A DNA stretch of 64,000 bases from a bacterium (GCA_021781705.1 JAJXWI010000003.1:2919-66918), one strand, 5' to 3'. Positions 86-63,806 are shown, numbered from the stretch's first letter. Numbers and translations are program-made. Notes: generated from the sequence alone by a model not told the origin.

Positions 86-150
86 GGTAGGGATACCTCG
101 CCGAGGGCGCCGCGTTTTCTTATGGTAGGGCAATTCCTTTAGCCATGCGT
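86..150 (+). repeat. Two REP-like modules (GGTAGGG + CCTCGCCGAGG palindrome; GGTAGGG + caattcctttagcc)
   Basis: GGTAGGG at 86-92 and 124-130, each followed by sequence matching modules seen again at 52445-52470, 60030-60050 and 62249-62268. Confidence 0.6.
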
Positions 151-4323: not shown

Positions 4324-5283
4324 CTAAAGCATTTGAGAAATCATTTTTTCGAGTTTAATTGTATCTACGGTAAAACTTCTAATTCCTTCTGCAAGCTTTT
4401 CGGTTGCCATAGCGTCTTCGTTGTGCATCCACCGGAATGTTTTCTCATCAAGAGTTATCTTATTCATGACTTCTGCCATTGTTTCAGACTTATTCAGCTT
4501 TCGATCCATTTTTTCAGTTTCAGCAGATTTAAGCTCATTCAAAAGCTCGGGAGATATTGTAAGATAATCGCATCCGGCTAATTCTGTAATCTGATCTACA
4601 TTTCTGAAACTCGCACCCATCACTATAGTTTTATAGCCATTTTTCTTGTAGTAATTATAAATTTTCTTGACAGATAGCACTCCGGGATCCATGGAAGGCG
4701 CATACTCTTCCATAACACTATTTTTCTTGTACCAGTCCAATATCCTACCTACATATGGAGAAATCAGCGTTACCCCGGCGTCCGCGCATTGAATAGCCTG
4801 AGCAAAACTAAAAAGCAGTGTCAAATTGCAATGTATATTCTCTTTTTCCAGCTGCCTTGCGGCCCTGATGCCTTCCCATGTCGCAGCTATTTTTATAAGA
4901 ATTCTTTCTCTGTTTATCCCAAGATCCCTGTACATGTCAATAATTTCACGCGCTTTTTTCACGGTGCTTTCCGTGTCAAATGACAATCTCGCATCAACCT
5001 CGCTGGAAACTCGACCCGGAATAATCTTAAGGATCTCTCTCCCGAAATTAACGGCAACCCTAGTTATTGCACTGTCCAAAATTTTGTCTTTTCCCGAACA
5101 TTTGGATTTAGCGTAATCAACGGCACCTCTAATCAATCCTCGGTATACTTCATTTTGGGATGATTTTAAAATCAATGAAGGATTTGTGGTGGCATCGGTA
5201 GGAGCAAATTTCGCAATTGAGTTAATGTCTCCGGTGTCCGCAACAACAACAGTCATTTCTCTGAGAAAATCAAGCTTGTTCAT
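4324..5283 (-). CDS. tal: Transaldolase (TalB type)
   Basis: VVADTGD, TTNPSLIL and Schiff-base lysine context ILIKIAATWEGIRAARQLEKENI. Confidence 0.9.
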   Translation of the reverse strand: MNKLDFLREMTVVVADTGDINSIAKFAPTDATTNPSLILKSSQNEVYRGLIRGAVDYAKSKCSGKDKILDSAITRVAVNFGREILKIIPGRVSSEVDARLSFDTESTVKKAREIIDMYRDLGINRERILIKIAATWEGIRAARQLEKENIHCNLTLLFSFAQAIQCADAGVTLISPYVGRILDWYKKNSVMEEYAPSMDPGVLSVKKIYNYYKKNGYKTIVMGASFRNVDQITELAGCDYLTISPELLNELKSAETEKMDRKLNKSETMAEVMNKITLDEKTFRWMHNEDAMATEKLAEGIRSFTVDTIKLEKMISQML

Positions 5284-49307: not shown

Positions 49308-49410
49308 GTGGAGGGGCGAGCTTCGTCTCGTCCGCCCTTATTTTCGGCTCCGACGAAGCGGAGCCCTCCATCTCACTCACCAGTATTCGACATGTGCACA
49401 TAGTTTGGGG
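49308..49410 (+). repeat. Repeat module I (GTGGAGGG-bounded double hairpin + tail), copy 1
   Basis: Outer stem TGGAGGG/CCCTCCA enclosing GCGAG-CTTCGT-CTCGT and GGCTCCG-ACGAAG-CGGAGCC; a second copy lies at 61967-62078. Confidence 0.75.
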
Positions 49411-50940: not shown

Positions 50941-51017
50941 GGTTCCGTAGCTCAGTTGGTTAGAGCAGATGACTCATAATCATCGGGTCGCTGGTTCGAG
51001 TCCAGCCGGGACCACCA
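50941..51017 (+). tRNA. tRNA with CAU anticodon (elongator Met or lysidine-modified Ile2), CCA encoded
   Basis: 77 nt cloverleaf; acceptor GGTTCCG/CGGGACC, anticodon arm GATGA-CTCATAA-TCATC. The T arm GCTGG-TTCGAGT-CCAGC resembles E. coli ileX as I recall it, so Ile2 is possible. Confidence 0.9.
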
Positions 51018-51031
51018 TTTTCTTTTCACGA

Positions 51032-51129
51032 ACAGATCGCCGAGCTGTCCGTTTGGTGTGTGCGCATACTTCACTAAACCCTTAACCTCCATCTCATTCA
51101 CCAGGATTTAATATTTGCGCATAGTTTGA
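51032..51129 (+). repeat. Partial repeat modules F and I-tail downstream of the tRNA
   Basis: ACAGATCGCCGAGCTGTCC (module F hairpin without the GGTAGGG core) and ...cctccatctcattcaccag...gcgcatagtttg, which matches the 49365-49408 tail. Confidence 0.6.
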
Positions 51130-51223
51130 TGAATGTTTTCTATATTTTTGGTGTTATAGCTTTATATTAAACCAGAAAGTTGAGTATTTAATAATCAAAC
51201 TTATAGAGCTGGAGAATGTTCTT

Positions 51224-52366
51224 ATGCGAAAAGATTTTTTGCCTTTCTGCAGGCCGTCCATAAATAAAGAAGATGTAAAAGCCGTTGACGAAGTTTTACT
51301 TTCCGGCTGGATTACCACCGGCAAATGGAATAACGAATTCGAAAAGCAACTATGCGAATATACTGGAGCAAAATATGGCGTAGCGTTAACTTCTGCTACT
51401 GCCGGAATGCATATACTCCTCAAGGCACTGAATATCGGCCCCGGCGACGAAGTTATCACACCTTCTCTGACTTGGGTTTCTACAATAAATTTAATTACTC
51501 TTTCAGGCGCAACCCCGGTATTTCCAGACATTGATCGCGACACATTAATGGTGACCCCCGATTCAATAAAAAAGTGCATCACAGCTAAAACAAAACTTAT
51601 CATACCTGTTCACTATGCCGGTGCGCCAGTCGACCTTGACGCAATCAATTCTCTAGCTAAACAGCATGGTATTACTATTGTAGAAGATGCTGCTCACGCC
51701 ATTGGCACTTTTTATAAAGGCAAACATATCGGGCATGAAAATACGGCAATTTATTCTTTCCACCCAATAAAGAACATCACTACCGGCGAAGGCGGCATGA
51801 TTACGACAAATGATCCGGAATTAATAGAAAAGCTCAGACGCCTAAAATTTCACGGGCTTGGTGTTGATGCTTTTGACCGCCAGCAGCAAGGCCGTTCTCC
51901 TCAGGCTCAGGTAGTTGATCCCGGATACAAATATAATCTTACGGATATTGCCGCAGTTCTTGGAGTTAAACAGCTTTCAAGGATTGGAGAAATAAACAAA
52001 AAACGTACTGAAATAGCCATGATGTACAGGCAAAAGCTGCAGGGAATTGAAGGGATTCTTCCGCTTAAAGATCCAAATTATGAATTTACCCATGCATGGA
52101 ATCTCTTCATTGTCAGGGTGACGACTGATAAGATAACCAGAAATGCTTTCATGGAAGAGCTCAAAAAGCTTAATATTGGAACAGGCCTTCATTTCCTAGC
52201 GGCGCATGTTCAGAAATATTACCGAGAAACTATGAATATTGCCCCAGGAGTATTAGCAAATACAGAATGGAACTCTGACAGGATGTGCTCAATTCCATTA
52301 TTCCCTGACATGACAGAGCAGGATGTTGATGATGTTGTGTCAGCTATCAGGAAAGTTGTTGGGTGA
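51224..52366 (+). CDS. arnB: UDP-4-amino-4-deoxy-L-arabinose--oxoglutarate aminotransferase-like (DegT/ArnB family)
   Basis: Near-colinear with E. coli ArnB as remembered: FLPFCRPS, SGWITTG, TSATAGMH, GDEVITPSLTWVST, IPVHYAGAP, FSFHPIKNIT, LKFHGLGVDA, GYKYNLTDI, NTEWNSDR. Confidence 0.85.
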   Translation: MRKDFLPFCRPSINKEDVKAVDEVLLSGWITTGKWNNEFEKQLCEYTGAKYGVALTSATAGMHILLKALNIGPGDEVITPSLTWVSTINLITLSGATPVFPDIDRDTLMVTPDSIKKCITAKTKLIIPVHYAGAPVDLDAINSLAKQHGITIVEDAAHAIGTFYKGKHIGHENTAIYSFHPIKNITTGEGGMITTNDPELIEKLRRLKFHGLGVDAFDRQQQGRSPQAQVVDPGYKYNLTDIAAVLGVKQLSRIGEINKKRTEIAMMYRQKLQGIEGILPLKDPNYEFTHAWNLFIVRVTTDKITRNAFMEELKKLNIGTGLHFLAAHVQKYYRETMNIAPGVLANTEWNSDRMCSIPLFPDMTEQDVDDVVSAIRKVVG

Positions 52367-52385
52367 TGGGGGATGGATCGTAGAT

Positions 52386-52441
52386 CATAGTTCATAGTTG
52401 GTAGTTGGTAGTTGGTAGTTGGTAGTTGGTGGTTGGTGGAG
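52386..52441 (+). repeat. 7-bp tandem tract (CATAGTT x2, GGTAGTT x4, GGTGGTT, GGTGGAG)
   Basis: Eight consecutive heptamers starting 20 nt after the arnB stop. Confidence 0.85.
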
Positions 52442-52444
52442 GAT

Positions 52445-52470
52445 GGTAGGGACGGCTCGCCGAGCCGTCC
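52445..52470 (+). repeat. REP-like unit: GGTAGGG core + GGACGGCTCG/CGAGCCGTCC palindrome
   Basis: 10-bp arms read directly; same architecture as module F copies. Confidence 0.8.
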
Positions 52471-52500
52471 GGTAAAAGAAGATAGATAAATATTCACTAA

Positions 52501-52771
52501 TATATTTATGTTCTAGCCACTGGCGTGAGCCCGTGGAAAACTTTATCACATAAAAATCAAGCCCTCATGCAGGGAGTGGCGACACTTTGAGTTTTTTCTC
52601 CAACACATTTCCCCGCAAAATACTAAAAAAAGAAATCAGTCGTTTTGAGGTTGCTAACATCTTTATCTGAATTCTTACCCGCCAACTGGTTCACTGGTTC
52701 ACCAGTATAAACGGACAGCTCGGCGATCTGTCCCTACCAAGACTCACTACGATCCACCATCTACGACCCAC
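52501..52771 (+). repeat. ~270-bp composite intergenic repeat, copy a
   Basis: Module order A (ctagCCACTGGCGTGAGCCCGTGG), B (CCCTCATGCAGGG...), C, D, E, F (GGACAGCTCGGCGATCTGTCCCTACC), heptamer tail; ends at the fbaB stop codon. Confidence 0.85.
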
Positions 52772-54105: not shown

Positions 54106-54422
54106 CTCTTTTTTCTATTCCACGGGCTCACGCCCATGGCTAACATGTCTATTATATTTATATTCTAGCCACGGGCGTGAGCCCGTGGAAAACTTTATCA
54201 CATAAAGATCAAGCCCTCATGCAGGGAGTGGCGACACTTTTAGTTTTAGCAAGGTTGTCGGAACCGTAAAATACTAAAAAAGAAATCAGCCGTTTTGAGG
54301 GTGGTAACATCTTTATCTGAATTCTTACTCGCCAACTGGTTCACTGGTTAGCCTGTTCACCAACATTATCGGACAGCTCGGCGATCTGTCCCTACCCAGA
54401 CCAACCACGATTCATGAACCAA
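54106..54422 (+). repeat. Composite intergenic repeat, copy b, with an extra inverted A hairpin at its left end
   Basis: 54153-54422 aligns with copy a. 54106-54253 is nearly identical to the reverse complement of 60322-60471. Ends at the stop of the 54423 gene. Confidence 0.85.
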
Positions 54423-55265
54423 CTACTCCTGCCCCCTATTTCCAATGTATACCATTTTTGTGAACGTTACTTGACGGCTTGTTCTGAATGCCTGAGCGGC
54501 TGGAGTTTCATTTGCCGGATAAACATTGGCACCTTGGAGTTTTATCCATTTCTGCCATGAGTCTTTATCCATTACTGTCAGATCAACAGTAACTACAGAA
54601 GGAAAAGGAGTTGGTGAAGGAGCAGTAGTACTTATATCAGGATTAATAATCGTACTAGTATCAGTACCTGTAGCACAAGTAAAAGAGAGGTCTATGACAT
54701 AAGGAATAAGTTTCTGGTAAGCTTCTGACGAGTTAGAATTTGCAGTAAAGGCCGATGTATCAGCTGCGAATCCCACTGTAAGATTATTAAGGTAGTTCCA
54801 TTTTGGATTATCACTGCCATCTGAATTCTTGTCGCCTGTAACGCTTCTTCTGACCCATCCCTCATTTGCGTCATGATTAGTCGCATAATAGAGTTGATAT
54901 TTTACTTCACAAAGAGTGGACGCACACTCAGAATTAGGAGGGATTGGTGTATCTGCTACAAATGCCAGCAATTCGTTCCTATACTCACCCCAGCCAGCCG
55001 GCCGGCCGCCATTCCAGTGCCAAAAAGGAGCAGAACCTTCACCATGATAAGCGCTTTCGAGATCCCTTGAAATCAGGTCTAGAGCTATACGTGCATCTTC
55101 AAAGGTTGATCTTTTTGCATCCGTTGTAGTCCAAGTGTTTTGCGCAGTTGAAAAAAAATGAAATGCTACAAGGATCAGGACTGAAAAAACAGCCATAACA
55201 GCCAGCAATTCAACTAAGGAAAAATACTTCCGTTTTGTCTTATCTTTCATAAATCTGGCTTTCAT
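54423..55265 (-). CDS. GspJ/PulJ-like minor pseudopilin
   Basis: GGAG 7 nt before the Met at 55265; MKARFMKDKTKRKY-FSLVELLAVMAVFSVLILVAF prepilin-type hydrophobic N-terminus; ARIALDLISRDLESA resembles GspJ. Confidence 0.65.
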   Translation of the reverse strand: MKARFMKDKTKRKYFSLVELLAVMAVFSVLILVAFHFFSTAQNTWTTTDAKRSTFEDARIALDLISRDLESAYHGEGSAPFWHWNGGRPAGWGEYRNELLAFVADTPIPPNSECASTLCEVKYQLYYATNHDANEGWVRRSVTGDKNSDGSDNPKWNYLNNLTVGFAADTSAFTANSNSSEAYQKLIPYVIDLSFTCATGTDTSTIINPDISTTAPSPTPFPSVVTVDLTVMDKDSWQKWIKLQGANVYPANETPAAQAFRTSRQVTFTKMVYIGNRGQE

Positions 55266-55331
55266 TAGAAACTCCAATAACTACCCAGTTTCCCGGCAAG
55301 TCCTTCAGCAAAGGACGTCATTAAGTCTATC

Positions 55332-55356
55332 AGACAGCTCGGCGATCTGTCCCTAC
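55332..55356 (-). repeat. Solo REP-like module F inside the pseudopilin operon
   Basis: GACAGCTCGGCGATCTGTCCCTACC; on the gene-sense (minus) strand this is GGTAGGG + hairpin, between the 55522 stop and the 55265 start. Confidence 0.75.
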
Positions 55357-55521
55357 CTAATTGTTTTCCCAAGGTTTTCTTATAGCAGGGCGTCCTTCTT
55401 TTACCACTTATTTCACTAAATACTTATCTCCGCTCGTAACTAGAATATACACCGAAGGTTAAAGAAACAAAGGAGCTCCTTACAAAACAGAAACAACTTT
55501 CCCAATTTTTATAAATACTAA

Positions 55522-58176
55522 CTAGTCAGACAGATAAATAAATCTCTTAACGTAGAACTTGCTGGGCGAGGTTGTGAAGTCACGTTTAATAATTGCAAGA
55601 ATCTTCTGAGACGCCAATATCTCATCGGCGTTGGGATCATAAACACTTGTATCTGTAGGAGTTGAAAGAGATTTTCCATATCTATCAAAACGAGTTCCTC
55701 CAATATCTCTAATAGCCTCCCCAACAGCTATTACAGTGTATTCTTCAGGAGACTCAGCCTTTGTAAGATTTATGAATTTTCCAATGAATTCTTCTTTCGT
55801 AGCATCCGTAGTACCCGTTGTCAACAAGTTCGCAACCGTCGTGTTGTTTAAGGTGTTAGCTCTTGTAGTAAAAGCCGTTCCTGTTCCCTGACTGCCGTTA
55901 ACAGCTATTATATTATTCGCAATAGTATTTGCAGTTGTCACACTCGTAGCAGTCCCTCCAGAGCCTGGATTGTCCTTGCTGCTGCCTATTTTTATATTAT
56001 CGAACAATGTTCTCAGAACGGATTGATTATCAGAATTTAGATTAATTTTTCCAAGGGTCGTAGTCCTTGATGTCATTTTTACCTGATCGAGGATGTTAGC
56101 ATCTCCATCATCATAATTATTTCCTCCTGCTCCCACATTAACGCCTTCAGTTGTGTTATATTTCTTTAGATTTAAAGTTTGGAATGCTTTAGCTCTGTGA
56201 ATTAATCCTAACTCCCATGGAGACTTCATGGGCGCATTCCGAATATACGCAGTAGATATTAGATAAGGATATGTTGCTGAAGGCTCGGGATCTGTAGAGC
56301 CTCCTGGATTTGGTGCAAAAACTGTGTTATTAGCAGTCAAACTTGGAGGAGGAGTAGAAGAAGTAGTAGTATAGGTCTTGAGACTCCAGTCGCTTGTAAG
56401 GGTATTCTGTCTTGGGTCATTTGTTTCATAAACGAAAATGAGCGTACCGGTAGTAGGAGTAGAAGAAGTACTTGATGCATTGGAAACTACCGGATACCAT
56501 GTAGTATTATTGTCAAATATGAAAGAATAATCATATAAATCTGCAGTCCCGGCGCCAAACAGCCTCACTTTTAGACTGTTTATTCTTGCCATTATTCTGG
56601 TATCAGCATAAGAACTGCTGGTAGTTGTAGTAAGGGTACGCACGGCATCTCTTTGAAGCGTATAGTTGATTGTAGGAAGAATAGACAGTGTCGTGTTTGA
56701 ATACCCATTACTAGTTGGTGCTGCTGAAGTTGTGAAAGGTGAAGACATGATTTCAAAGCTTTCAGAATCAAGTGTAGTTATTAAGGTTGGGGAACTGAAC
56801 TTTCCCCATTGAAGTTCAATGTCTTCCATGTCTACTTTAGCCTGTATTGACTTAGAAACTCCATACATATCTACGACTTGAACTGTATCTGCAATATTTT
56901 CAGTAGTAAATGTGTATATATAACGTCTACTTCCTCCCGAAAGTCCATTGGTTGCAACAACAATTTTTCCTGTAATAGACACCATAACACGATTTATATA
57001 GGGTACTTTTTCCAGTCCTATATAAGTGGGATCTGTATTAGTCCCGCTGTCAGTAGTAGGAATATCATTAGAATCGCAGTAATCTATTAAGTTGGCTATA
57101 ATCTGGCTTTGCGCAACACCCTTGTTAGCAAAACCACCTGAAGACTTCCAGCCGTTATCCCCAAGCCATGGTAAATAATTTGATTCACCAGATAAGGCAG
57201 TCATAAACTTTATGCCAGAAGCATTTCCTATTGAATTAACAGTTAATGTATCCCAGTCTGTTCTGGTAAGATTAAATCTATGATAGAATTCATTTGTATC
57301 TCTAATATTATCGTCGCTTACATCTACCCAAAAAGCCTCTGGATCTTCAAGCGCGTTTACATAAAATACTTTTCTAAAATAATCCCGTGTAGTATCATTA
57401 TTCGCTGCAATGCCAAGCGCATTAAAAATCTTTTCATAGTCTTTCCAGTTTCCTGCATTTCCAATAGGAACAAGCCCCGGCGGACTGCAGGTTGCAGCAC
57501 TCATTTTTTGAGTATATATAGCTGAAAATGCTGTTGTGTCAGCTTGCAACGAGGCCAGACTTAACTCAGTTAAATCCCTCCCTGGCCTGCCTACTACATA
57601 ATTGCCTGCAGTATCGACCGAAGTATTCCCCCCGCCATAGTTGAATTCAGACGGTGGCGTTATTCCCCACGAATCAGCATTAACACCTGAGTCTATCACT
57701 GCCCATGGATCAATCTTCCCTTTATCTGGAACAACAACATAAGCTATTCGTCCAATGATTGTTCCAGTGTCTGCCTGATTTGTCCTAAAATAAATCCACG
57801 AAACATTGGTAGTATCACTTGCTATACACCCGCTAGGATAATCAACAGGTAAAGAATAGTATGTGATTCCATTAATAACCGTGGTAAGTTTTGAAGCAAG
57901 AGATTCCGTGTCAGCATTGGTCCATGATGTCATATCGCTGCGATGACTCACTATATTACTGAAGCTTTCCTGTGGATTAGTGCTCGCACTCTTCATTAAT
58001 GCCACAGCCCTATTAAAAGCCGTTTGTGCAGCAACTCTTGCAGAAACTATATTCTGGTAGTTTGACGATGCTTTTTTTTCGACTATTGAAGTTGTCACAT
58101 AGGCAATACCCAAACAAAGAAGCAACGCCGTTATGCCTATTGCTAGAATTGTCGCTATACCATTTTCATTTTTCAT
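55522..58176 (-). CDS. Giant GspK/PilX-like minor pseudopilin (~885 aa)
   Basis: Start moved to the ATG at 58176 (MKNENGIATILAIGITALLLCLGIAYV). GspK-like landmarks ANLIDYCDSNDIP and MKSPWELGLIH. The upstream extension in the track ORF is encoded by a terminator hairpin. Confidence 0.6.
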   Translation of the reverse strand: MKNENGIATILAIGITALLLCLGIAYVTTSIVEKKASSNYQNIVSARVAAQTAFNRAVALMKSASTNPQESFSNIVSHRSDMTSWTNADTESLASKLTTVINGITYYSLPVDYPSGCIASDTTNVSWIYFRTNQADTGTIIGRIAYVVVPDKGKIDPWAVIDSGVNADSWGITPPSEFNYGGGNTSVDTAGNYVVGRPGRDLTELSLASLQADTTAFSAIYTQKMSAATCSPPGLVPIGNAGNWKDYEKIFNALGIAANNDTTRDYFRKVFYVNALEDPEAFWVDVSDDNIRDTNEFYHRFNLTRTDWDTLTVNSIGNASGIKFMTALSGESNYLPWLGDNGWKSSGGFANKGVAQSQIIANLIDYCDSNDIPTTDSGTNTDPTYIGLEKVPYINRVMVSITGKIVVATNGLSGGSRRYIYTFTTENIADTVQVVDMYGVSKSIQAKVDMEDIELQWGKFSSPTLITTLDSESFEIMSSPFTTSAAPTSNGYSNTTLSILPTINYTLQRDAVRTLTTTTSSSYADTRIMARINSLKVRLFGAGTADLYDYSFIFDNNTTWYPVVSNASSTSSTPTTGTLIFVYETNDPRQNTLTSDWSLKTYTTTSSTPPPSLTANNTVFAPNPGGSTDPEPSATYPYLISTAYIRNAPMKSPWELGLIHRAKAFQTLNLKKYNTTEGVNVGAGGNNYDDGDANILDQVKMTSRTTTLGKINLNSDNQSVLRTLFDNIKIGSSKDNPGSGGTATSVTTANTIANNIIAVNGSQGTGTAFTTRANTLNNTTVANLLTTGTTDATKEEFIGKFINLTKAESPEEYTVIAVGEAIRDIGGTRFDRYGKSLSTPTDTSVYDPNADEILASQKILAIIKRDFTTSPSKFYVKRFIYLSD

Positions 58177-58198
58177 GGGGCATTTGCCATATTTTGAA

Positions 58199-58230
58199 AA
58201 AATTAAAAAGGCAGGAATTCTTTCCTGCCC
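58199..58230 (-). terminator. Intrinsic terminator between the first and second pseudopilin genes
   Basis: Minus strand GGCAGGAA-AGAA-TTCCTGCC then TTTTTAATTTTTT, starting ~17 nt after the 58247 stop. Confidence 0.65.
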
Positions 58231-58246
58231 CAAAAACCGTTTCCTC

Positions 58247-59836
58247 TCAAGAGGCACCTATACTGTTCAGGTCATAAACTTCAAAATAGTACCTCAGTTT
58301 ATTCCTCTTGCTGTAATCTGTCTGATGCAATGGCCAGCTAATTTCTACATTAACACCTACGCCAACAGTTTTCTCGCTTGTACTAGTTGTTGTTGCACCA
58401 GAAGGAGGCGTAACCGGAGTTCCACCATCAACCGTTACATTTCCATTAGATCCTTCAAGCATTTGAATGTACCAATTCCCGATCCCTCCAGAGGAACCGG
58501 CCTTCCATAGTTTAATTTTCAAAGAACCATTTGACGCGGCATTCATAACTACATTTTTTCCATCAATCAATACATTTTCGCCATTCAGTGCAAGATTAGC
58601 TTCATCTCCACTTTTAGTTCTCAAAACTAAGCTATTTGCAGAATAAGTTCCGGCAGTACTATCACTATTCTTTTTTAAGTCATCTCTTGTAAGATGTGTT
58701 CCATCGGACTTTGTCATATCAAAAGCATAATCACTATTAGTAGGATTTATACCTATTCCGCTTTCGCTTGTTTTAAGAGCACTAGTATCTGTTGGTGCAA
58801 GTGTGGCAACGAGAACAAGATCCTGCATATCATATGCCGAACTTTTTTTATCTTTTGTATAAAGTTCAAAGCCATAAATAACCTGATTATCCGCAAGTTT
58901 GATTTTTCCATCATTAGTTACGTAGTCCTTAACTACTGTTGAAAGGGGTAACTGCGTTCCATACGCATCTATAGTAGGAACAGGATCTCCATTTTTAAGA
59001 ACCCACACCTGATTGCTATCTGTTGATAAAACAGTTCCAGGATTATATTTGCCTTTCTTGTCTGTGTCATACTGGTCAGACTTAGCGCTGACTACAATAC
59101 TTGTTCCAACTGGAGCATTTTCTCCTGAAGGAGTCCAATTATACGAAGACTGAGTAAGAGGACCTGGAGGATTTGCAATAAATGCGGTCCCGTCGGGTTT
59201 TGTAAGAGGAGTTCCGTCAATTTTTGTAGCAGTTACACTGACAGTAACGTTGGGATTGGCTGGCTGCATATATACACCAAGACACTTAAAAGACACATTA
59301 ACCGGCGCAGTATTAGATACGGTTCCGCTTGAAATATTAAACTTAGGCGTTTCAGGAACCGGCGGCGGTTTATAAGCAATCACTTTTTCGTCTTGGCTAT
59401 ACGGTTTGCCCTGCCATATCAGTACTTGAGCGGAATAGTCCTGATCGCTTCTTGATGAAGTGCCTTTGGCTACTACGTAAACACCTTTGTTAGAGGTTGA
59501 ATACATATTATCTCTTCCAGAAATCTTATTTTCCAAGGCAGGCATCGCACTTACAATAAAACTAGGCGTATCAGAACCGTTTAGAAAAATCTTATCTCTT
59601 GAGGGTAATCCAATAATTCCTTTATCATCCCATAAGGCAGAATCTTTTGCCAGACTGGAAATATACGCATAAACATCATCGGCAAAAATCGCTGAATAAT
59701 TTTGCCCCATAGAATCTTTAGCTTGCTTCATTCCCACTGGGAAAAGCGTAATCACCGTGACCGCTCCGACAGCAAGTATACCAATTGCTAACGCGACCTC
59801 CACCATTGAGAACCATTTTTTCATAATCGTTTTCAT
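58247..59836 (-). CDS. Large pseudopilin-like protein (529 aa) with prepilin-type N-terminus
   Basis: GGGAGGTG RBS; MKTIMKKW-FSMVEVALAIGILAVGAVTVITLFPVG; Thr/Ser/Asn/Gly-rich beta-type remainder. Confidence 0.65.
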   Translation of the reverse strand: MKTIMKKWFSMVEVALAIGILAVGAVTVITLFPVGMKQAKDSMGQNYSAIFADDVYAYISSLAKDSALWDDKGIIGLPSRDKIFLNGSDTPSFIVSAMPALENKISGRDNMYSTSNKGVYVVAKGTSSRSDQDYSAQVLIWQGKPYSQDEKVIAYKPPPVPETPKFNISSGTVSNTAPVNVSFKCLGVYMQPANPNVTVSVTATKIDGTPLTKPDGTAFIANPPGPLTQSSYNWTPSGENAPVGTSIVVSAKSDQYDTDKKGKYNPGTVLSTDSNQVWVLKNGDPVPTIDAYGTQLPLSTVVKDYVTNDGKIKLADNQVIYGFELYTKDKKSSAYDMQDLVLVATLAPTDTSALKTSESGIGINPTNSDYAFDMTKSDGTHLTRDDLKKNSDSTAGTYSANSLVLRTKSGDEANLALNGENVLIDGKNVVMNAASNGSLKIKLWKAGSSGGIGNWYIQMLEGSNGNVTVDGGTPVTPPSGATTTSTSEKTVGVGVNVEISWPLHQTDYSKRNKLRYYFEVYDLNSIGAS

Positions 59837-60012: not shown

Positions 60013-60050
60013 GTAGTTCGTGGTGGCATGGCTAAAGGAATCGCCCTACC
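60013..60050 (-). repeat. Heptamer-like tract + module H (ggctaaaggaatcgCCCTACC)
   Basis: Reverse complement GGTAGGGCGATTCCTTTAGCC matches 62249-62268 and 124-144. Confidence 0.65.
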
Positions 60051-60321: not shown

Positions 60322-60471
60322 CTAAAAGTGTCGCCGCTCCCTGCATGGGGGCTTGATCTTTATGTGATAAAGTTTTCCACGGGCTCACGCCCGTGGCTAG
60401 AATATAAATATAATAGACACGTTAGCCATGGGCGTGAGCCCGTGGAATAGAAAAAAGAGACATTTTTATTA
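60322..60471 (-). repeat. Partial composite repeat (modules B + double A hairpin), inverted relative to copy b
   Basis: Reverse complement is almost base-for-base identical to 54106-54253. Confidence 0.85.
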
Positions 60472-60512: not shown

Positions 60513-60554
60513 CCCAAAACCCAAAACCCAAAACCCAAAACTTAAAACTTAACA
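60513..60554 (+). repeat. 7-bp tandem repeat (CCCAAAA)x4 followed by CTTAAAA and CTTAACA
   Basis: Read directly; ends 10 nt before the 60565 ATG. Confidence 0.9.
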
Positions 60555-60564
60555 CTAGAGACCC

Positions 60565-61884: not shown

Positions 61885-61966
61885 GTAGTTGATGGTTGAT
61901 AATTGATGGCGGGCTGTACGAGTTAACTAAACCATGTGCCAGCAGGGACATAGGTCGATCCATCGA

Positions 61967-62078
61967 GTGGAGGGACGAGCTTCGTCTCGTCCGCCTTTCT
62001 TTTCGGCCCCGACGACATTTCTAACACGCATGGTAAAAGCGGAACCCTCCACTTAAGTCATAATTTGCGTATGGTTTG
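61967..62078 (+). repeat. Repeat module I, copy 2 (second hairpin disrupted by extra sequence)
   Basis: GTGGAGGGACGAGCTTCGTCTCGTCCGCC...GGAACCCTCCAC...gcgtatggtttg aligns with 49308-49410. Confidence 0.75.
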
Positions 62079-62369
62079 TAGTTCGTGGCGGCTTGGGTAG
62101 GGACAGATCGCCGAGCTGTCCGATAATATTGGTGCACCAGTGCACCAGTTGGCGGGTAAGAATTCAGATAAAGATGTTACCAACCTCAAAACGGCTGATT
62201 TCTTTTTTTAGTATTTTGCGGTTCGTGGTTCATGGATCGTGGATCGTGGGTAGGGCGATTCCTTTAGCCTTGCTAAAACTCAAAGCGTCGCCACTCCCTG
62301 CATGAGGGCTTGATTTTTACGTTATAATCTTTTCCACGGGCTTACGCCCGTGGCTAGAATATAAATATA
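62079..62369 (-). repeat. Composite intergenic repeat, copy c (reverse orientation) with a nested ~48-bp insertion
   Basis: Equals the reverse complement of copy b. The exception is 62221-62268, where a heptamer tract + GGTAGGG + module H replaces ~10 bp. Confidence 0.85.
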
Positions 62370-62390: not shown

Positions 62391-63806
62391 CTATTCCTTG
62401 TACTCGTTAAAGAACGTTTCACCGGCATCGACTGCGCGCTGATTAACTTCCACATATTTTTTATTCTTGATGGATAAAGGAAGAACTTCCTTCAACACAT
62501 CGACAGGGAATACGCCTGTTAGTTTAGCATAAAATGCTAGGATAATGACTGCCGCAGCTGCCGTAAGTCCGAGATTATTGGCCATTTCGGTAGCGGGTAC
62601 GTAATACGCTTTAACATCTTTTCTTGTTACTTTCTTTGGTACGATAGAGGAGTTTACGATAATTATGCCTCCTTTTTCAACGTCATTTTCGAAAGTTTCA
62701 AGAGAAGGCGCATTCATTGCGATAAGAACATCGGGTTTGTCTACTACCGGCGAACCAATCGTTTCATCGGATATTACGATGCTTGCGTAAGCTGTTCCTC
62801 CGCGCATTTCTGCTCCGTATGATGGAAGCCAGGTAGTATTAAATTCAGCGGTTTTTCCGCAGTTTGCAAGCAGTACGCCCACGGACATTATTCCCTGCCC
62901 GCCGAATCCTGCTATTTTTACTTTGTGCTCGCCTATTTTCTTCAACTGTTTTTGAGCCTTTTTTTCGTTTGCCGCAGATACTTCAAGCAGCTCAAAAAGT
63001 TCTTTATCATCCAGGAATGGGAATCTGCCATGACTTTTTATTCCGGTATCAACATCTCTGAAATTCTTTACTTCATAAAATTTTTCAAGATTTTCAATAA
63101 GCCACTTCCTGGAATCTATCGCGTTCATTTTCCAGTTTATCGGACAAGGCGAAAGTATTTCAACGAACGAGAATCCCTTCCTGTTTTTCTGGTTAGAAAT
63201 AGCTTTTTTTATGGCTTTCCTGGTCTTTAAGGTACTTGTTGCATTGCCTACGGAGCACCTTTCGATAAATACAGGAGCTGTGAGAGTATTCAAAAGTTCA
63301 CTCATCCTGATAGGATATCCATCTCTTGTGGCATCTCTGCCGAAAGGAGTTGTTTTTGTTTCCTGGCCTATCAGAGTGGTGGGGGCCATCTGGCCTCCGG
63401 TCATTCCATATATTGCATTGTTAACGAAGAATACTGCAATATTTTCGCCTCTATTAGCGGCGTGTACGATTTCCGCCATGCCTATTCCCGCCAGGTCTCC
63501 ATCTCCCTGATATGATATTACAATTGAATCATCAAGGGTTCTTTTTATCCCGGTGGCTACGGCCGGAGCTCTTCCATGCGGACACTGTACATGTCCCGTA
63601 TCAAAATAATAATGGAGGAATGTGGTGCATCCTACCGGATTGCAAAATATTACCTGGTCCTTAATTCCCATCTCGTCAATGGCTTCAGCTATAAGCTTGT
63701 GAACTGTGCCATGCCCGCATCCTGGACAGTAATGGGTTGTTTTCTGCCCTGGTCCTTTCCTTGTGAAAGTATCGTAAAAGGCATTTGGCTTTGTATGTTT
63801 GATCAT
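62391..63806 (-). CDS. 2-oxoacid:ferredoxin oxidoreductase, fused beta (TPP-binding) and gamma subunits
   Basis: N-terminal CPGCGHG and TPP motif GDGDLAGIG. The C-terminal ~190 aa (KIAGFGGQGIMSVG...EMRGG) is the gamma-subunit domain. Confidence 0.85.
   Translation of the reverse strand: MIKHTKPNAFYDTFTRKGPGQKTTHYCPGCGHGTVHKLIAEAIDEMGIKDQVIFCNPVGCTTFLHYYFDTGHVQCPHGRAPAVATGIKRTLDDSIVISYQGDGDLAGIGMAEIVHAANRGENIAVFFVNNAIYGMTGGQMAPTTLIGQETKTTPFGRDATRDGYPIRMSELLNTLTAPVFIERCSVGNATSTLKTRKAIKKAISNQKNRKGFSFVEILSPCPINWKMNAIDSRKWLIENLEKFYEVKNFRDVDTGIKSHGRFPFLDDKELFELLEVSAANEKKAQKQLKKIGEHKVKIAGFGGQGIMSVGVLLANCGKTAEFNTTWLPSYGAEMRGGTAYASIVISDETIGSPVVDKPDVLIAMNAPSLETFENDVEKGGIIIVNSSIVPKKVTRKDVKAYYVPATEMANNLGLTAAAAVIILAFYAKLTGVFPVDVLKEVLPLSIKNKKYVEVNQRAVDAGETFFNEYKE

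Follow-up and report, generated by a model that had tools for sequence, protein, structure and literature searches.

What element follows the stop codons of several genes in this stretch of DNA, and does its orientation point to a role in RNA? The preliminary description of the window (the whole 64-kb stretch analysed here) reported one recurring order, namely stop codon, G/T-rich heptamer tract, GGTAGGG and hairpin, on the sense strand of at least five genes. It took the consistent polarity as a sign of an RNA-level role and gave polarised insertion as the alternative. The alternative is favoured by the evidence assembled here: relatives carry a repetitive extragenic palindrome (REP) linked to a RAYT transposase, the arnB C-terminus has been overwritten, and the tract is hypervariable. 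The element is probably a REP in a BIME-like mosaic, with a clade-specific, slippage-prone heptamer module at its head and a polarity that arises mostly from the layout of the mosaic and from a stop-rich strand.

Module layout of the window

Contigs of two MAGs, GCA_027452705.1 and GCA_027457625.1, match the window, whose arnB has its nearest named relatives in Victivallales/Lentisphaerota. In a repeat search of the window, the spacers at 49-63 kb prove to be built of recurring modules A, B, C, D and I. Module A is the REP, designated ACAGATCGCCGAGCTGT-type, which occurs in six to seven copies in the 64 kb, nearly all at 51-62 kb. Module B (~100 nt) follows A, module C (~100 nt) has the hairpin CCACGGGCTCACGCCCGTGG at its end, module D is GGTAGGGCGATTCCTTTAGCC, and module I is a long hairpin headed GTGGAGGG. 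The palindrome pair of module C draws generic miRNA-hairpin matches in an Rfam E-value scan. The features are as follows.

86-111, plus strand: REP variant GGTAGGGATACCTCGCCGAGGGCGCC, without tract, antisense to the gene ending at 245
124-148, plus strand: copy of head D, without tract, antisense to the gene ending at 245
49308-49372: second copy of module I, 3' of the Aas-like gene
51032-51051, plus strand: headless REP palindrome (without GGTAGGG), 17 nt after the tRNA gene at 50941-51014
51224-52366: arnB-like gene, DegT/DnrJ/EryC1 aminotransferase, stop TGA at 52364-52366
52367-52444, plus strand: G/T-rich heptamer tract of 78 nt directly 3' of the arnB-like stop, with units GATCGTA/GATCATA/GTTCATA, then GGTAGTT four times, GGTGGTT and GGTGGAG
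52445-52471, plus strand: REP copy A1, head GGTAGGG at 52445-52451, then a perfect palindrome
52450-52470, plus strand: A1 palindrome GGACGGCTCG-C-CGAGCCGTCC, 10-bp arms
52497-52708, minus strand: modules C (52497-52595) and B (~52613-52708), the mosaic interior between A1 and A2
52713-52738, minus strand: REP copy A2, which reads GGTAGGGACAGATCGCCGAGCTGTCC in this orientation and is paired with A1 as an inverted, head-outward partner
52739-52771, minus strand: tract of the fbaB-like (DeoC family) gene, G/T-rich in the sense of the gene, directly after its TGA
54371-54396, minus strand: REP copy A3, followed in the same orientation by modules B (54276-54366) and C (54149-54266)
54397-54422, minus strand: short G/T tract after the TAG stop of the 284-aa 'GspJ-like' ORF
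55332-55357, minus strand: REP copy A4, sense, 165 nt past the stop of a 911-aa ORF, without heptamer tract (G+T 0.37)
60013-60027: tract-like GTAGTTCGTGGTGGC, on the other side of the head D at 60026-60050
60026-60050, minus strand: copy of head D in a divergent (promoter-side) spacer
61885-61915, plus strand: heptamer tract directly after the phosphomannomutase stop, GTAGTT GATGGTT GATAATT GATGG, G+T 0.72
61967-62053, plus strand: module I, long hairpin GTGGAGGG...CCCTCCAC, with an inner hairpin and T-run that resemble a terminator
62073-62122, plus strand: second G/T tract (62073-62095), then REP copy A5 (62096-62122)
62123-62221, plus strand: module B 3' of A5
62210-62248, plus strand: internal heptamer tract GTTCGTG GTTCATG GATCGTG GATCGTG, in register with the next head
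62249-62273, plus strand: head D, GGTAGGGCGATTCCTTTAGCC
up to 62370, plus strand: module C after head D, ending in the hairpin CCACGGGCTTACGCCCGTGG

The spacer between the convergent arnB-like and fbaB-like genes runs tract-A(+)...C(-)B(-)A(-)-tract. Its two REPs, A1 and A2, form a head-outward inverted pair (28 nt, 89% complementary) set 240 nt apart with unrelated modules between them. Inverted repetition also links, in part, the arnB tract to the fbaB tract and takes in the stop regions of both genes. The headless palindrome at 51032-51051 is 100% identical to the copy at 62103.

The sequences quoted in the preliminary description all lie where it placed them, and an element whose head and hairpin are conserved does recur downstream of genes. 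At arnB the strict order holds: heptamers (52367-52444) lead into GGTAGGG and a palindrome with 10-bp arms. The strict order extends to the fbaB-like gene and the 284-aa ORF, for which the label 'GspJ-like' finds no support in Pfam, but not to the remaining two genes. Although the phosphomannomutase does have a tract at its stop and, later, a second tract with GGTAGGG, module I is interposed. The Aas-like gene is an unconvincing case, with a G+T content of 0.53 past its stop, a short G/T run ~78 nt downstream, and GTGGAGGG as head instead of GGTAGGG.

Chance does not account for the pattern. GGTAGGG occurs 11 times in the window against 3.07 expected, a count reached by none of 100 shuffles, and the 20-nt palindrome is present in six copies at 80-100% identity. 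Two GGTAGGG are intragenic and lack the palindrome, a number that fits chance expectation. Among the nine intergenic heads, six lie downstream of the end of a same-strand gene and one lies in a divergent spacer; the two at the window edge are antisense to the sole visible neighbouring gene end. The 35 nt upstream have a G+T content of at least 0.71 at five of these nine heads, compared with 1.7% of 35-mers from the first 49 kb that reach 0.70. Four of the five also have a lag-7 identity of at least 0.43 (joint null for G+T of at least 0.70 and lag-7 of at least 0.40: 0.4%). Periodicity is clearest at arnB, where TRF returns period 7, 6.1 copies and 97% matches with the unit TAGTTGG (G+T 0.86, lag-7 0.86). 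The corresponding G+T and lag-7 values are 0.74 and 0.54 at fbaB, 0.71 and 0.39 at the 284-aa ORF, 0.77 and 0.43 at 62073-62095, and 0.77 and 0.79 at 62210-62248. The tract is missing at four of the nine intergenic heads (86, 124, 55357 and 60050) and the architecture is absent from ~38 other genes of the window, many of which end in classical terminators with a hairpin and T-run.

Identity of the head and hairpin

By sequence, GGTAGGG and its palindrome are assigned to the GTAG-tagged REPs. When species-representative genomes are scanned with the 25-mer GGTAGGGACRGNTCGCCGAGCYGTC, the design GGTAGGG-N4-NTCGCCGAN-N4'-CC, with covarying stems, is found at no fewer than 118 loci beyond the window, in Verrucomicrobiota, Lentisphaerota, Kiritimatiellia, Planctomycetota, Acidobacteriota, Chloroflexota, Rhodothermales and others. 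The 25-mer of A1 is identical in many phyla, and none of the loci listed by the scan comes from the organism of the window. Close to most copies in these loci lies an inverted partner that keeps the design but has another stem, and short-spacer inverted doublets occur in L125 and many other loci. The exact variant GGTAGGGACAGATCGCCGAGCTGTC is found at ten loci in a lineage-specific metagenome scan, none with a tract and none clearly from this organism.

The consensus over all loci is GGTAGGG-N4-N-TCGCCGA-N-N4'-CC. In 133 loci, a hairpin of at least 7 bp follows GGTAGGG in 235 of 301 cases, as against ~2-3% for most permuted 7-mers. Across 61 distinct stem variants, 94.9% of cells are standard pairs and double changes occur at six of eight pairs, a covariation count that is biased because the elements were chosen as palindromic. 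In the window, the arms are 8-10 bp, and GGTAGGG lies directly 5' of the palindrome in five copies, with one copy headless. Immediately 5' of the head, no conserved target sequence is visible. Interpretation as CRISPR, attC or operator was dropped on account of irregular spacing, covarying stems and position 3' of genes. The core element is of a known kind, and its attachment to a heptamer tract is a clade-specific addition.

The palindromes might instead be double-stranded DNA sites for a regulator or nucleoid protein, with the heptamers as iterated half-sites. The central TCGCCGA is a conserved dyad, and the binding of IHF, gyrase and Pol I to E. coli REP/BIME sequences counts in the same direction. 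However, the stem varies freely while compensatory changes keep it paired, which argues for a folded single strand and not for a sequence-specific duplex site; the sites lie 3' of genes instead of at promoters, and no conserved regulator is seen as a neighbour. Recognition as duplex DNA is hardly credible on this evidence.

Association with RAYT transposases

Identification as a REP leads to the question of a mobilizing enzyme. A tblastn search of the collected loci with E. coli RayT identifies an ORF in L057 (E 2.6e-11) that ends 5 nt before a GGTAGGG hairpin, and another in L009 (E 1e-9) with REP doublets on both sides. The two translations are 45% identical, both carry HUH and YxxxNP motifs, and they score 24.7 bits (L057; cutoff 23) and 18.1 bits (L009) against Pfam Y1_Tnp. 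Homologues of the L057 ORF number 643 at E of 1e-10 or below, many of them named 'REP element-mobilizing transposase RayT' (JGI). GGTAGGG hairpins also flank the genes at two further RAYT homologue loci, L139 and L140, so that all four RAYT loci examined (L009, L057, L139 and L140) are adjoined or flanked by this REP family. At the level of sequence, the REP identity and the RAYT link in relatives can be regarded as established.

A REP is the non-autonomous partner of a RAYT, an IS200-like HUH/Y1 transposase whose recognition site consists of the GTAG head and hairpin in single-stranded form. In this Lentisphaerota (Victivallales-like) genome, a BIME-like mosaic of REPs and modules B, C, D and I has filled several spacers at 49-63 kb. 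No RAYT gene lies within the 64-kb window, as expected of a single-copy gene. Mobility of the REP in this genome, and its membership of a REP-RAYT system there, are presumed from the relatives; among near-identical assemblies no REP insertion polymorphism is seen and only tract length differs.

Origin and variability of the heptamer tract

The REP family does not bring the heptamers with it. Upstream of 232 REPs in other organisms the tract is absent and values equal background (G+T 0.50, lag-7 0.256), which rules out heptamers as a family-wide feature. GGTAGGG and tract are likewise absent around arnB orthologues of 79-90% identity (L134-L138). The G/T tract would be a further repeated module joined 5' of the head, with units of seven bases, the length of the GGTAGGG head, several of which carry GTAG; its length would change by slippage. 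The sequence GGTTCATGRATCGTGG is common to the tracts at 54397 and 62210 (62210-62248), and GTAGTTCGTGGYGGC is common to 62073 and 60013. This local homology indicates that the tract is a repeated module and is not made anew at each gene.

Comparison of close relatives documents a tract that is hypervariable and that has replaced the end of arnB. In L121 and L141, assemblies that match the window at 99.9% identity, the tract is shorter by one heptamer, and contig L122 stops inside it. L141 also switches from the arnB-side module B to the phosphomannomutase-side copy, a jump that reflects either chimeric assembly or recombination. The last residues of the arnB protein are ...VVG* in the window, as in P0003-P0005, its closest relatives (91-99% identity), and ...EVMAKTE*, ...EVMAKAK* or ...EVLAKA* in all others compared. 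The underlying 3' DNA, gtt-gtt-ggg-tga, is already tract sequence; the tract has therefore replaced about five arnB codons and supplies the stop. The replacement predates ~9% protein divergence. The convergent arnB/DeoC pair is present in the P0005 contig too, with a gap of 137 bp versus 405 bp in the window, a length that would fit a tract-REP-REP-tract core without modules B and C.

In all five tract cases the tract shares the strand of the head and lies exactly 5' of it, a regularity whose mechanistic cause the REP reading leaves unexplained. Alternatively, the arrays might be primary. Under such a scheme, inverted arrays with the G/T arm first would fold, between convergent genes of PVC-type genomes, into long hairpins that serve as bidirectional terminators or insulators, and REPs and other modules would have been inserted later, mid-array, in this lineage. 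Period 7 is indeed the commonest in 879 kb of related loci, with 41 arrays, compared with 23 for period 6 and no more than 5 for each of the other periods between 5 and 11. In L008 and L066, inverted pairs led by the G/T arm lie directly at the stop codons of convergent genes; L039 has the same G/T-first pair, its right-hand gene uncalled. The hairpins are very stable (z -7.6 in L008, -9.0 in L039), units of L008 (GTTGATA, GGTAGTG and GATGGTT) resemble those of the window, and the arnB and fbaB tracts stand in an inverted relation to each other.

Other observations count against it. Only 3 of the 41 arrays are near REPs, versus 4.9% of bases, which amounts to no enrichment. Several arrays are C/A-rich in sense or lie upstream of genes (L015, L032 and L125), and a unit consensus across taxa is weak, with a mean best match of 4.4/7 versus a null of 3.95. 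In the window itself, 300 nt separate the arnB tract from the fbaB tract, and their complementarity amounts to only ~75%. Primacy of the arrays is thus rather improbable, a minority view in which they would be elements in their own right. A wider proposal is speculative and would most likely prove wrong: period-7 microsatellites that are G/T- and stop-rich in sense might make up a so far overlooked class of intergenic element of PVC-type bacteria, often forming inverted arrays with very long hairpins at convergent gene ends. Physical coupling to RAYT-type REPs would have come about in this Lentisphaerota clade, whether because the GGTAGGG head seeds arrays or because arrays are preferred landing sites, and the combined unit would set translation stops and transcript ends.

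Polarity relative to genes

REPs within 250 nt of gene 3' ends are sense at five genes in the window (arnB-like, fbaB-like, the 284-aa ORF, the 911-aa ORF and the phosphomannomutase) and antisense at two (the POR/TPP gene at 62391 and the gene ending at 245). One further REP copy follows a tRNA and others lie in a divergent spacer, outside this count. Two of the five sense cases are both ends of one head-outward inverted pair.

Orientation statistics were compiled for 133 family loci, with rough counts from a crude, home-made GC3-based gene caller. Tandem gaps are about even, with 35 sense and 28 antisense. In convergent gaps 36 copies are sense to the nearer gene and 21 antisense, an excess expected of head-outward dimers. 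A further 20 lie in divergent gaps and 45 inside called ORFs. The family-wide counts give no sign of strong polarity. With 5 to 2 in the window and 35 to 28 in tandem gaps of the family, consistent polarity fails as an argument for an RNA role.

Layout and strand composition would together produce the appearance. REPs and tracts sit in head-outward inverted pairs, and both genes of a convergent pair therefore meet the same order. The G/T(A) strand of the tract is stop-rich in all frames and its complement nearly stop-free, so that copies at gene 3' ends would be tolerated mainly in sense: a sense copy touching the end of a gene would stop the protein at once, and an antisense copy would add a junk tail. 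Stop codons number 7 in sense and 2 in antisense in the arnB tract, 3 and 0 in the fbaB tract, and 5 and 0 in the phosphomannomutase tract; the sense stops of the arnB and phosphomannomutase tracts fall in all three frames. The apparent polarity is thus attributed to the inverted mosaic layout, to the stop-rich orientation that is tolerated at gene ends and to small numbers, and a selective filter on orientation may have operated.

A possible role in RNA

The order tract, GGTAGGG and hairpin could still have been selected as a module of the RNA 3' UTR. In such a module the hairpin would block 3'-5' exonucleases or pause or terminate RNA polymerase, and the G/U-rich repeats would bind a protein or prevent antisense read-through. 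The element does lie directly past the stops of three to four genes on the sense strand, and the arnB tract is kept in proteins only 91-92% identical; its retention over ~9% protein divergence is also compatible with function. REPs are described as lying mostly 3' of ORFs and as probably transcribed (PMC3733652). RNA-level effects are documented for those of E. coli (PMC3733652), which can stabilise the mRNA upstream of them and bring about partial Rho-dependent termination (bioRxiv 10.64898/2026.03.23.713779). By analogy, mRNA stabilisation or partial termination by the REPs of the window is possible.

Selection for such a module is nonetheless unlikely. Four of the nine intergenic heads do without the tract, and there are copies that sit between divergent genes or run antisense to the ends of two genes. 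The length of the tract differs between near-identical strains, relatives at 79-90% identity do without it, and orientation is about even family-wide. Folds of tract and hairpin are unexceptional as RNA (z +0.3 to -1.65 versus shuffles), and the organism uses ordinary terminators elsewhere. A search of the window with Rfam 15 at the gathering score finds only two tRNAs, and neither the tract nor the REP hairpins are touched by any match with an E value of 5 or less. The terminator check of the window flags no T-run after REP hairpins, so the preliminary remark that the hairpins mostly lack a U-run is right for these, but it does not apply to the inner hairpin of module I (49314 and 61973).

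Implications

Read as a REP mosaic, the locus extends the GTAG-tagged REP/RAYT class of repeats to Lentisphaerota and reveals one REP design common to many PVC, Acidobacteriota and other lineages. It also carries a warning for annotation: such repeats overwrite gene 3' ends, supply stops, and break or mis-join short-read assemblies. Remaining interest attaches only to the 7-base microsatellite joined to the REP head and to the overall surplus of heptamer arrays in these genomes. If functional, or if made by the transposase, these would offer new insight into the origin or action of REPs.

Comparison with known systems

Resemblance to the STRR sequences of cyanobacteria is of layout only. STRR are tandem heptamers, CCCCAGT, TTGGTCA or CAACAGT, found in heterocystous cyanobacteria, with no known function. 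These heptanucleotide tandem repeats were reportedly described by Mazel et al. in 1990. Both kinds of array have tandem 7-base intergenic units, strand-asymmetric composition and variable copy number, whereas unit sequences and phylum differ and the arrays here are joined to REP heads. Membership of the STRR was rejected, since the units in this Lentisphaerota genome are GGTAGTT, GATCGTG and GTTGATG and only period 7 and the tandem layout are shared. Searches of the literature on heptamer repeats in PVC bacteria or small dispersed repeats of cyanobacteria returned nothing usable, and no description of a heptamer tract 5' of REP heads was found in the REP literature consulted (PMC2817692, PMC3116915, PMC3733652, PMC3479197).

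Intrinsic terminators share with the element a GC-rich hairpin shortly after the stop codon but differ in the T/U run, which does not follow the REP hairpins here. Enterobacterial BIMEs are closer, being likewise assemblies of REPs and other short modules in variable order and orientation that fill intergenic spacers, although modules B, C, D and I and the tract are unrelated to theirs in sequence and longer (~100 nt). A REPIN consists of two inverted REPs that form one long hairpin across a short spacer and move together; the pair in the window is inverted and head-outward too, but 240 nt apart.

The closest match is to the GTAG-tagged REPs and REPINs (Nunvar 2010, PMC2817692; Bertels & Rainey 2011, PMC3116915; Di Nocera 2013, PMC3733652; Messing 2012, PMC3479197), which, like the element described here, have a 5' GTAG head before a short GC-rich palindrome, stems that covary between subfamilies and common head-outward inverted pairs. 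They too are extragenic, mostly just 3' of ORFs, and sometimes supply the stop codon, and their repeats flank one small Y1/HUH transposase gene, as in the relatives examined here. GTAG REPs have been found in many phyla, including Verrucomicrobia (Opitutus terrae) and Planctomycetes, mostly as inverted dimers downstream of ORFs near stops, sometimes supplying TAG, and with GTGG-headed variants (PMC3733652). The GTGG-headed REPs of Opitutus terrae have a counterpart here in a GTGG-headed variant. Set against other GTAG-tagged REPs, the present family is distinguished by its invariant extended head GGTAGGG and conserved central TCGCCGA, by its host, a Lentisphaerota MAG, and by a hypervariable 5' tract of G/T heptamers that, compared with described REPs, occurs only in this clade.

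Module I and shared mosaic segments

A repeated element may carry the real terminator of two genes. Module I, one of the small repeats of the window's mosaic spacers, is found 3' of the Aas-like gene and again 3' of the phosphomannomutase gene, and its inner hairpin, GGRCGAGCTTCGTCTCGTCC, precedes a T-rich run; judged by sequence, both copies are flagged as terminator-like. At a third site, a tRNA gene is followed after 17 nt by a REP palindrome lacking the GGTAGGG head, and then by the segment CCTCCATCTCAYTCACCAG...GCRCATAGTTTG. The same segment recurs 3' of module I at 49366 and is a further module that the mosaic reuses.

Mosaic features in the window
49314-49343 (+), inner hairpin of module I, terminator-like
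61973-62002 (+), inner hairpin of module I, terminator-like
51032-51140, headless REP with the shared segment
49366-49410, shared segment again

Heptamer arrays in the window and in other loci

The phosphomannomutase start codon lies 8 nt past the end of a heptamer array, in a divergent spacer where two module C hairpins also stand tail to tail (60375-60447).

Heptamer arrays in the window and example loci outside it
60513-60556 (window), four perfect CCCAAAA units, then AAAACTT units
L008 6523-6662
L039 7830-7955
L066 6987-7672
L125 8727-8898 and 11374-11534

Among the PVC and Acidobacteriota loci fished, seven is the commonest tandem repeat period (41 arrays, against 23 for period 6; the remaining periods between 5 and 11 have no more than 5 each), and one heptamer array comprises 23 perfect TTTCAAT units. 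Several arrays lie as inverted pairs where convergent genes meet, and these pairs fold into hairpins of great length (z -7.6 at L008 and -9.0 at L039).

Assembly and gene content

Short-read assembly is disturbed by these repeats. In the near-identical assembly L141 (about 4340-4444), the arnB-side module B runs into the copy 3' of the phosphomannomutase gene; the two copies stand 9 kb apart in the window, and the junction is either a chimera or a product of recombination between repeats. Another contig, L122, has its 3' end within the heptamer tract.

A more distant locus, L134, whose arnB is 87% identical to that of the window, has no GGTAGGG elements. Its spacers are long and several genes are broken up, with ABC_tran split in two, hexokinase split in three and a chorismate-binding fragment, which suggests gene decay in this relative.

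The name "GspJ-like" in the preliminary description is unsupported. With E values up to 0.01 allowed, Pfam matched neither that ORF nor the two large ORFs upstream. Separately, within an 810-aa ORF at 37372-39804 (-) a stretch of about 480 nt is directly duplicated (spacing 1242 nt, identity 70-75%).

ORFs without a Pfam match in the window
54423-55277 (-), the "GspJ-like" ORF
55522-58257 (-), 911 aa
58247-59836 (-), 529 aa

Module C and Acido-Lenti-1

Module C ends at three window sites in the hairpin CCACGGGCTYACGCCCGTGG CTAGAATAT.

Terminal hairpins of module C in the window
54156-54188 (-)
60377-60409 (+)
62334-62366 (+)

The Rfam family Acido-Lenti-1 RNA matches this hairpin at 24 bits, below its gathering score of 37. 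The two have in common the loop CUnACG and the 3' GGCUA..UAU, and their stems differ by compensated changes. Because loop and 3' part agree while the stem varies with compensation, Acido-Lenti-1 may not be a stand-alone sRNA but a relative of the terminal part of a repeated element.
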